A DNA stretch of 64,000 nucleotides, taken from contig JADKDR010000006.1 of assembly GCA_016714535.1 (NCBI GenBank), forward strand, positions 264,514-328,513, given 5' to 3'. The notes below the pieces were generated by a model. The model saw only the letters and a program-made list of their open reading frames with translations, did not search any database and had not been told where the DNA came from. The DNA is from Bacteroidota bacterium (GTDB taxonomy: Bacteria > Bacteroidota > Bacteroidia > AKYH767-A > OLB10). Both the position numbers and the translations under genes were made by a program. Below, piece after piece: positions 55,710 to 64,000 of this stretch; position 1 is the first letter of the stretch, and each line of letters begins with the position of its first letter.

Positions 55710-58700
55710 CTACTTCTTAATAAACCTTACAGTTTCAGTCATACCATTCAACTGAACGTTTACTAGATACATTCCGGCTGCAAACTGAGTCATGTTATAC
55801 AAACGTGTGTTATTACCTGCAAAGGCTGCTTCCTCTAAATTAAATACCACTCGGCCAATGTTATCATACACAGTTACGCGTACTGTACCATCTTCAGTCG
55901 CTTCAAAGTTCATATTCACCATTCCTTCTCCTGGATTAGGATAAATAGTTACCATACCGGTAGTGCTTACGATGTCGCTGGTAATCTTTGGAGGTGCAGG
56001 GCAAGTTAACATACTTGAAGTGCTACCTTGTATACCACCGGCCCATGCTCTCAATATATTCCATACCGCTGTACTACACTGCGCAGATGTATAAGGACTT
56101 GAACATGCACCAAGTTTCTTATTAGCTTCGTTTAATACTTGCGTTACAGTCATACCAGCAAATGGCGCTGTACCATATATTAGGTCACCTAATGTTACTG
56201 TTGGCACAGGCGCAAAGTTCGGATCGTATGCATCAAATACCACACTTAGTTTCAAGCTCACTACCAATGCTGCAAACGAACTGTTAAACGAGCCACTTGT
56301 TGGGTTGTTCAGGTTAGAGCTTAACTGTAATGCACCACCTGTTGCAGGTTGACCGGTTAAGAAATTGCGCACTGCCGTAGAGCTGCTTAAGGTAAGAGTC
56401 TTGCTTCCACCGCAACCGCCACCTACAACCAAACTAGCCGGGAATGCGGCCGGGAAATGGTTAGTCAGGTAAGTACCTATGTTATTGCCTGCGGCCGGTG
56501 TTGTCCAACCTACTGCATTTCCATATGTACCAGGATTCGGGAACTCAGTATGGAATGGTGTACCATTGCTACACAAGAAAGGTGGCTGAGTAATCGTTAC
56601 TGTTGCTTGGGTTAAGCATCCACTTGCATCCGTTACCGTTACCTGGAATGTTCCTGCGGTTAATCCGATTACATCTTGAGTGGTCCTTACTGGTATGGTA
56701 TTCCACTGATACGTGTAAGTACCGCCTCCACCGCTTACGCTAATGTATGCTGCTCCATTGTTACCTCCATAGTTGGTTACATTGCTTGTGCTATCAACAA
56801 CTACAACAATTGACGTTGGTGCTGTTATTACACAACTGCTGCTGTTACTGCAACCGTTTGCATCTGTTACCGTTACGGTATACGTACCCGGAGGCAAGTT
56901 GCTAATGCTACTGCTTGTAGCAAAAGTATTCCACACATAAGTGTATGGCGCACTTCCACCTGCTGCGGCTACACTTGATGCACCGTTGCTTCCATTATTG
57001 CAAGTAGTATTAGTACAGCTTTGGCTCAATACGATAGCGTTAGGTTGCGTTAACACTACACATAAGGTGATGGTACATCCATTGGCATCTGTAACCGTTA
57101 CGGTATGTGGTCCTGCTGGCAGGCCAGTGCGGTCTTCGGTAGTAGCTCCGCCTGTCCATATGTAAGTATATGGGGCCGAACCTCCGGTTACGGTAATGTT
57201 AATACTACCATTGCTGCCACCGTTGCAAGCTGGATTTACATGCGTTTCGGTAATGTTAAGTCCGCTTGCCGGAGCTGTAACTTCATAGCTTGCCGTGGCA
57301 GTACATCCGTTCGCGTCTGTTACGGTCACCGTATATATTCCACCCATCAAGCCTGTTGCTGTTTGAGTAGTTTGACCGTTACTCCACATATAACCGTATG
57401 GCATAGTTCCGCCACTTACCGTAGCCGTTGCAGTACCATTGCTATTTCCATTACAACTTGCATTGGTACCACTAGCAGTTACAGCTAATGCTGCAGGCTG
57501 CGTTAAGGTAATACTTACTGTTTGTGTACATGTTCCATTACTTACTGTTACTGTATAGATACCTACTCCAATACCCATCAAGTCTTCAGTTGTTGCTCCG
57601 GTACTCCATGTATACGTGTAAGTGCCTAGTGGATTGGTGGTCAGGTTAATGCTACCATCCAAACCTCCATTACAACGGATGTTATATCCGCCTGCATAGG
57701 TTGGGCTATTCAAACTAGCGGTAAAGCCACCGTTATCTGTAACCTTCACACATACGCTTATTACACATCCGTTGGCATCAGTTACAGTTACAAAGTTATT
57801 ACCTGGACATAAGCCGGTAGCAGTTTGGCCAGTCTGACCGCTGCTCCACAAGTAACTGTATGGCATTGTTCCTCCCGTAACATTTACCGTTCCTTCGCCA
57901 TTGCACAATCCGCAAGTTGAGTTAACGCTCGAAGTGCTTATTGTATCCAGTACTGCCGGTTCTATTATCTCTCCTGATGCGGTTACGGTACATCCATTAG
58001 CATCGGTTACCGTTACGGTATACATTCCTGCTCCGGTATTTACAATATAGCTTAAGCTTGCTCCTGTGTTCCATGCATAACTGTATGGCGCTGTTCCTCC
58101 GGTCACTGCTATGCTTATGCTGCCATCCATCATTCCATTACAACTTACATTTACTGCTGTAGCTGTAGCTTCTAATAAGGCTGGCTGAGTTATCGTTCCG
58201 CTTAAGCTTGCTGTACATCCACTGCTGTCAGTTACAGTTACAGCATAGATTCCTGCACCGGCCGTAATCGAAGTAGTAGTCATACTATTACTCCAAGCAT
58301 AGGTGTAAGGAGCACTGCCACCATTCAGATTAGTGATTGATAACGTTCCATTTCCTCCGTTGCATAATGGATTAACTGCACTCAAGGTAAACTGTATGGA
58401 TGCCGGTTGACCAACAAACGCTGTACAAGAAGTAGTACATCCTTGATTATCGGTAATTAAAACAGTATAAACACCTGCTGTTAAGCCTGTATTAATTGCG
58501 TTGGTTCCTCCATTACTCCATTGGTATACATACGGTGGTGTGCCTCCAAATACATTAACTGTTGCAGTTCCTATTGCCTGTCCGCAAGCAGTAGGCGTGC
58601 AAACTGTGTTGCAATTAAGTGCTGCACTTTGTGACATGATAATGGCAACCTGAACGTTACAACCCATACTATCAGTTACGGTAACATACACTGCCCCTGC

Positions 58701-63299: not shown

Positions 63300-64000
63300 T
63301 GGCGGTAGTCTGTGCTGGAATCGTATTCCACTGGTAGGTATATGGGGCCGTGCCTCCTACTACATTATTTAAACATGCCTTGCCATCATTGCCACCATAA
63401 CATTTGATATTATCGCAAACAACTAAGGTAAAGGTTATGGCAGGTGGCTCTACTATATTATACGTGCAACTCATGGTACATCCATTGGCATCAGTTACCG
63501 TTACTGTATACGCACCTGCCGCTAGGCCTCCTATTGTTTGGGTAGTAGCACCCGTGCTCCAACTGTATGTATAGGGGGCGGTGCCTCCGGTTATGTTGCT
63601 CGTTATCATTCCATCGCTGCCTCCGTTGCACATCGTATTGCTTACGCTGCCACCACAAATAAGTGGTGCCGGAGCTGTGATGGTAAATACAACTGCCAGA
63701 TTACAGCCGTTGCTATCCGTAATTAATACCGTGTGAGTACCTGAGCTTATGCCTGTAAACAAGCCACTGCTTTGAACTGCTCCACCATCAAGGCTATAGT
63801 CGTAGCCTGCTGCGTGTATGCCTGCACCGCTCCATGGCGTGCCGCCAAAGGCTGTGATATTTATGCTACCTGTTTGGCCAGCACATAATGGTTGGGTAAT
63901 CGTGAAATTCTTATCTAACATGTTAGGCTCGAATATGTAGAAGGTCATGATCGTATCGCATCCTAAACTATCTGTTACTGTAAGTGTATATGTGCCTGCA
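63214..64000 (-). CDS. Upstream continuation of the same giant SprB-like gene, offset by a +1 frameshift; it runs off the window end
   Basis: SprB repeats continue (…[38 protein letters not shown]…). The frame reads through 63948 to position 64000 with no stop. The two frames meet at a TTT run near 63283-63285. Confidence 0.8.
   Translation of the reverse strand, partial: [261 protein letters not shown]

Follow-up and report, generated by a model that had tools for sequence, protein, structure and literature searches.

SprB, the mobile gliding adhesin of Flavobacterium johnsoniae, carries a type B C-terminal sorting domain (CTD), and is secreted and anchored via the adjacent PorP-like protein SprF (PMC9143113). 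Type A cargo of the T9SS (type IX secretion system) is attached to the cell by its CTD end (PMC9143113). Documented contingency tracts are about 7 units long or more, and their rates rise with length (PMC4965091). Here we describe a giant gene with SprB repeats, located at one end of a 64,000-nucleotide stretch of the 461,694-bp contig JADKDR010000006.1 from a Bacteroidota metagenome-assembled genome (MAG; GCA_016714535.1). The whole stretch is called the window below, and its proteins are MBK8846983-MBK8847021, with IPO27 locus tags. The gene is encoded on the minus strand and is interrupted by one extra base. In the GenBank record, solely 55710-63299 is annotated, as the stand-alone coding sequence (CDS) MBK8847021.1.

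Two minus-strand frames, 63999-63214 and 63299-55710, are parts of one gene on the evidence of the open reading frame (ORF) calls, the repeat register and hidden Markov model (HMM) searches. The long ORF 55710..63299 encodes 2,529 aa. The upstream frame enters at the window edge (63999) and runs open as far as the stop at 63214; it contains the same repeats. Pfam detected 29 SprB repeats (PF13573) in the long ORF, with 790.5 bits against a cutoff of 28, and three further repeats in the upstream fragment. At the end of the long ORF, Por_Secre_tail (PF18962) matched aa 2452-2524 of 2,529 with 74.3 bits (cutoff 27), and the NCBIfam model TIGR04183 for the type A sorting domain matched with 45.2 bits (cutoff 23). 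The protein is an SprB repeat-containing protein of PF13573, and with a type A CTD at its extreme C-terminus it is a predicted type A cargo of the T9SS. A previous reading made from the DNA letters alone (the sequence-only reading) had proposed one giant SprB-repeat gene with a T9SS sorting domain. Pfam, TIGR04183 and the array of 33 units after repair bore this out, but the proposed length of more than 2,780 aa was too high, as the window holds 2,762 codons after the one-base repair. The 2,529-aa MBK8847021.1 appears in the public record as a complete protein; it is actually the 3' end of a broken gene that is much larger.

In a register test on the DNA, the start-to-start spacings of the repeats were all multiples of 3, except for the spacing across 63281-63327, which was 466 (3n+1). 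Because the register is broken only there, exactly one extra base lies in this interval. A deletion scan was performed, in which each base of 63270-63339 was removed in turn and the junction unit was scored by an HMM of the protein's own units. The score showed its maximum of 85.4 bits at 63293-63295, within a plateau from 63291 to 63302. The repaired junction unit had an E-value of 1.7e-27, like the neighbouring units, and 33 units then stood in series. The coding strand at the lesion reads GCC AAT GCA AAC CGG, and without one A it fits the 'A-x-A-T-G-L' pattern of the sister units. The lesion would most likely be one extra coding-strand A, by which GCA-ACC became GCA-AACC at 63293-63295. The scan and the E-value of the junction unit confirmed the earlier expectation that removing one T/A restores a perfect repeat. 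With regard to the +1 frameshift that had been placed in a TTT run near 63283, a one-base insertion at a T/A run was found as proposed, but at 63293-63295. Collapse of the repeats during assembly was considered as a cause and was rejected, because the repeat copies are too diverged; they are 60-85% identical in DNA, and Tandem Repeats Finder gave no match on the array.

The two closest uninterrupted relatives, loci L002 and L005, have the same architecture, and their frames reach the edge of the locus after more than 3,600 aa without a break. The homologue in L001 consists of 6,515 + 291 aa and is broken elsewhere than the window gene. This break lies at an A5 run in the final SprB unit, with about 200 nt to go before the non-repeat domain of L001, and A6 would restore '...VKNVTANGG...'. 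L002, L003 and L004 are three paralogous giant genes on JADKFV010000049.1 (168-239 kb), within about 70 kb in one relative, and each of them ends in the helical domain described below and a CTD. L003 and L004 have shorter open frames before the domain (363 and 974 aa), which may represent further frame breaks. No same-species copy across the junction was found, either as protein (best identities 57% for the C-terminal 289 aa, 45% for the upstream 261 aa and 53% for the repaired 400-aa junction) or as DNA (best 58% in GTDB species representatives and 43% in JGI metagenomes), and these negatives are not absolute, since the protein database lists cluster representatives only and the window protein sits under a 704-aa representative. 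On another contig of the same MAG, of 414,116 bp, the 704-aa protein MBK8846397.1 (P0005, locus tag IPO27_07575) is 99.7% identical to 60474-62540 and is frame-broken at both ends. A 104-aa fragment, MBK8846201.1 (P0006), from the same 414,116-bp contig, is 93% identical to window 56757-57056. The two represent either paralogues nearly identical to the giant gene or contigs of a co-binned strain that carry it.

The GenBank annotation implies two separate genes at this locus, and a programmed +1 ribosomal frameshift would be another way to account for the two frames. The 2,529-aa CDS begins with an ATG exactly at 63299, and the Prokaryotic Genome Annotation Pipeline (PGAP) called this downstream ORF as a CDS of its own. 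On the other hand, the boundary of the ORF falls in the middle of one of the repeat units, and removing one base restores that unit perfectly. By inspection, the start of the downstream ORF has no signal-peptide-like N-terminus, which T9SS cargo needs, and no slippery site, in-frame stop or Shine-Dalgarno-like element typical of prfB-type +1 sites was seen. Furthermore, the homologues do not share the shift site: L002 and L005 run through the equivalent region without interruption, and L001 is broken at a different place. Both arrangements are scarcely credible in our view, and the gene is better described as a single one with an insertion.

As the gene stands, translation of the upstream part would stop 27 codons after the shift, giving a polypeptide that lacks the CTD and hence could not use the T9SS. 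Because the upstream part would lack the CTD and the downstream ORF lacks a signal peptide, the allele is expected to be a null. If the lesion is genuine, this null allele would revert solely at ordinary mutation rates. The type A CTD of the giant protein would route it through the T9SS and would then be removed, leaving the protein either bound to the cell surface or set free. Outside the window lies the N-terminus, presumably with a Sec signal peptide. The product is predicted to be a very large cell-surface or secreted Bacteroidota protein.

Other genes of the window were compared with same-species assemblies built from short reads (ENA megahit and Logan contigs), which have 98.1-98.4% identity and cover window 9624-19087 and 35332-42063. 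The region 10003-12319 (minus strand) contains one split gene, composed of ORF 11576..12319, the signal-peptide part, and ORF 10003..11703, with SprB repeats and a type A CTD. The intact form of this gene, with 771 aa, was present in six independent short-read assemblies at 98.3% identity. Its lesion in the window is one extra A at about 11680, where AAGCTT-ATG became AAGCTTAATG (CTT-ATG to CTTAATG), a 1-to-2 'run'. It is a second +1 insertion of the same kind as that of the giant gene.

The sequence-only reading had suggested a phase-variation switch. In such a contingency locus, slipped-strand changes in the length of an A/T run would turn the adhesin ON and OFF at a high rate. The lesion does lie at a mononucleotide run in a surface-protein gene, and a second SprB-type gene in the window has a similar +1 insertion. 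However, the run at the lesion comprises 3 nt, or 2 if the gene were 'ON', and runs reach 5 nt at most in the 8.3-kb part of the gene. The tract falls short of the approximately 7 units needed for high-frequency slippage. The lesion at about 11680 is at an even shorter 'run', and the gene is intact in all six relatives (6/6). The break in the giant gene is not conserved either, L002 and L005 being open and L001 broken elsewhere. From the run lengths and the comparison with the relatives, we regard a switch as very improbable, and the frameshift is best not taken for a regulatory device.

Further T9SS cargo genes in the window are damaged in other ways. The region 40557-42063 (minus strand) is the 3' third of a gene that encodes 1,402 aa in the relatives (Sortilin/PKD/SprB/CTD). 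In this remnant, an in-frame TAG at about 41193-41195 replaces the Tyr of 'APYSFLW'. The homology to the relatives ends at 42063, and the 5' two-thirds of the gene are replaced by a 489-bp copy of 54562-55050, adjoining an IS1380 transposase. The giant gene is separated from the next ORF by 1.4 kb free of ORFs (54266-55700), the remnant of a gene broken at several points. The TAG codon, the truncation and the broken remnant indicate real decay of T9SS cargo genes in this strain.

Some additional features of these regions were observed. The IS1380-family transposase (DDE_Tnp_1_4; 42636-43952, plus strand), which adjoins the truncated gene, belongs to a 138-member 90% cluster from many assemblies. 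The two copies of the 489-bp direct repeat (54562-55050 / 42053-42539) are 99% identical, with 3 substitutions and the run changes G4/G3 and A5/A4, and each is part of a beta-propeller-like gene that has been broken several times. At 53543-55700 (minus strand), the 240-aa ORF 53543..54265, which has a CTD only and no signal peptide, and the 1.4-kb stretch look like one degraded T9SS cargo gene.

For the origin of the extra base in the giant gene, we lean slightly towards an ordinary unprogrammed one-base insertion, a genuine and recent loss-of-function in the sampled population, and give this about an even chance of being right. The alternative is an artefact of assembly or polishing, in which the gene is intact in the organism and the extra A was introduced or left in the MAG consensus; mis-mapped reads from a second copy or from a co-occurring strain may contribute. 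A sequencing artefact had also been named in the sequence-only reading, and we take it seriously, with a probability somewhat below even. Several observations weigh against a genuine mutation. The long contigs of the MAG (414-789 kb) suggest a long-read assembly, and its closest relatives are Nanopore/CANU MAGs of a Danish activated-sludge study, L002 being 'Ribe_18-Q3-R11-54_BAT3C.3'. The pipeline of that study used CANU on Nanopore reads, followed by Racon, medaka twice and Racon with Illumina reads (PMC8012365). Such Nanopore assemblies are known to keep frameshifting indels as a residual error, which is concentrated in homopolymers (PMC9262707). In a sister MAG, a response regulator of 248 aa appears as two pieces of 205 + 56 aa, and the L001 homologue is broken at its A5 run. 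The 99.7%-identical, frame-broken P0005 in the same bin could confuse short-read polishing, and the copies of the 489-bp repeat differ in their G3/G4 and A4/A5 run lengths. In addition, an error would look like this, with one lesion only and the rest of the 8.3 kb open.

On the other hand, the homopolymers in the unbroken ORFs of the window serve as an internal control. These ORFs contain 87 runs of 6 nt, 33 of 7, 9 of 8, 2 of 9 and 1 of 10, and all 132 of them are in frame. The error-prone long runs were thus polished correctly. This lowers the likelihood that an error was left standing at a 2-to-3 run, a site that is atypical for errors of a Nanopore consensus. The connection of the window MAG with the Nanopore study is drawn from the neighbourhood of its accession and locus tags and from its contigs, and IPO27 / JADK is absent from the supplement of the paper; the MAG is probably Nanopore-derived. 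Finally, the real decay of the neighbouring cargo genes makes a genuine lesion unsurprising. If it is genuine, at least 3 or 4 T9SS surface proteins have been lost in 64 kb while being kept in close relatives, and the locus would be a small addition to the record of how adhesins turn over among Bacteroidota of activated sludge.

Between the repeats and the CTD, the protein has a non-repeat domain that is mostly alpha-helical. The sequence-only reading had described a non-repeat region of 380 aa at residues ~2150-2450, which is too large; it comprises about 210 aa, residues 2241-2451. No Pfam-A model matched this domain (55947-56579), and a search of its profile against the PDB sequences gave nothing at E ≤ 1. 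The profile, made from the window sequence and three homologues, was searched against 1.84 billion representatives; E ≤ 1e-3 was reached by 2,146 representative clusters (50% identity), and E ≤ 1e-30 by 372. Among the best 148 matches, the domain occurs in 1-4 copies per protein, at the N-terminus, in the middle or at the C-terminus. In the 10 members scanned, it co-occurs with SprB repeats, HYR_4C and, in 8 of them, a type A CTD; the smallest consist of the domain and a CTD alone. In L001 and L002, the terminal copy is preceded by another, internal one that lies 4.6 kb upstream, and the window has one copy only.

The structure of the domain was predicted by AlphaFold2. A 4-sequence alignment gave an unusable model with a predicted local distance difference test score (pLDDT) of 48. 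The final run with 30 sequences yielded a pLDDT of 90.3 and a predicted template modelling score (pTM) of 0.86, with a five-helix core and short strands. Two flanking cysteines, C3 and C193 of the model, are almost invariant and might be joined in a disulfide. A fold search of the PDB with the predicted model gave no match. The sole fold match was the 'Ig family protein' A0A6N1NZ86 of Tupanvirus deep ocean in BFVD (606 aa; E 3e-10, TMq 0.72, 22% identity), and this suggests another putative member of the domain family, in a giant-virus record, with no hint as to function.

We consider it only just short of an even chance that this domain of ~170-210 aa is a previously undescribed, widespread T9SS cargo module, which could act as a ligand-binding or surface-anchoring element of giant fibres; with the same reserve, but as a separate matter, selection for the loss of adhesins, and not chance, could lie behind the several broken SprB-type genes of this strain. 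Because the domain adjoins the CTD, the cell-attached end, its position in this protein would be membrane-proximal and not distal. A function as a 'binding head' is possible, if topologically awkward here. The domain is common, absent from Pfam and confidently modelled, with no solved relative, and it is a candidate for a new domain family entry. Apart from this family, we rate the interest of the locus as low.

The features of the gene and of its relatives are summarized in Table 1.

Table 1. Positions of the giant gene, its parts and the helical domain of two relatives (window coordinates unless a locus is named)
Feature	Coordinates	Strand	Basis or remark
3' part of giant gene for a predicted T9SS cargo, 2,762 codons after repair	55710..63999	-	5' end beyond the window
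Upstream frame, 3 SprB-type units, then out of register to stop 63214-63216	63214..63999	-	Pfam, 3 SprB matches, 93 bits
Likeliest site of the extra base, AAA coding / TTT plus strand; plausible range 63291-63302	63293..63295	-	Register break, deletion scan
33 consecutive SprB-type units, period 73-83 aa (~76 aa)	56583..63999	-	Pfam, own repeat HMM, DNA spacing
Non-repeat, mostly alpha-helical domain, ~210 aa; conserved core 55980-56516	55947..56579	-	ORF residues 2241-2451
Type A T9SS C-terminal sorting domain, Por_Secre_tail / TIGR04183	55713..55946	-	Pfam, NCBIfam
Intrinsic-terminator-like hairpin, strong, 14-bp stem and T run	55649..55680	-	30 nt after the stop codon
Helical domain in relatives	L001:5346-5984, L002:5324-5962		Domain family members

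A search of Rfam at the gathering threshold gave no match in 54-64 kb of the window. Elsewhere in the window, two copies of the Flavo-1 RNA motif (RF01705) were found at 23267-23349 (plus strand) and 29242-29337 (minus strand), scoring 63 and 69 bits (gathering score 42). The second copy lies in the 5' extension of a mechanically called RadA-like ORF, 27758..29401. The longest homopolymers of the window (9-10 nt) are located at 16472-16481, 53490-53499, 24291-24299, 24708-24716 and 55643-55651, none of them in the giant gene. The T10 is inside an intact 248-aa LytTR response-regulator gene, and the A10 at 53490-53499 is between a histidine-kinase ORF and the 240-aa CTD ORF.

Among the known systems, the poly-G contingency loci of Campylobacter jejuni resemble the window gene in that a one-base length change occurs in a mononucleotide run in the reading frame of a surface protein. 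Unlike the A2/A3 of the window gene, these loci are G/C runs of 7 or more that switch at about 1e-3 per division (PMC4965091).

The 669-kDa SprB of F. johnsoniae is, like the window protein, giant and repetitive, with SprB repeats (PF13573) and export, predicted for the window protein, by the T9SS. The likeness extends to size, as the relatives of the window gene are similar (6,515 + 291 aa in L001). Unlike SprB, the window protein has a type A CTD: only type A models matched the last 290 aa at E ≤ 0.01, with none for the type B CTD (TIGR04131 / PF13585 CHU_C) and no CHU_C match on the whole ORF. Downstream of the window gene come a terminator and then a degraded gene, not an sprF-like gene, and the PorP/SprF family matched none of the window ORFs scanned. 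The helical domain before the CTD may be a further difference from SprB. With neither a type B CTD nor an adjacent sprF, the window gene is not an SprB orthologue. The description as an SprB-like gliding adhesin, given in the sequence-only reading, holds for the SprB repeats and the T9SS CTD; it does not hold for the CTD type or for an adjacent sprF/PorP-like gene.

The architecture is shared with the generic Bacteroidota proteins that have SprB repeats and a T9SS type A sorting domain, in which SprB repeats are likewise followed by Por_Secre_tail. More than 2,000 proteins were matched at E ≤ 1e-20 in one search, and at least 8 further ORFs of the window carry the same type A CTD. No T9SS machinery genes (PorV/PorU/SprA etc.) turned up among the window ORFs scanned, this being a result for the window only, and the machinery of the host is indirectly supported by the at least 9 window ORFs that end in the same CTD. 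Unlike the generic proteins, the window protein is unusually long, and it has the helical non-Pfam domain, which is present only in a subset of them. The giant gene is an ordinary gene for a predicted T9SS surface protein of a very common kind, with a one-base insertion.

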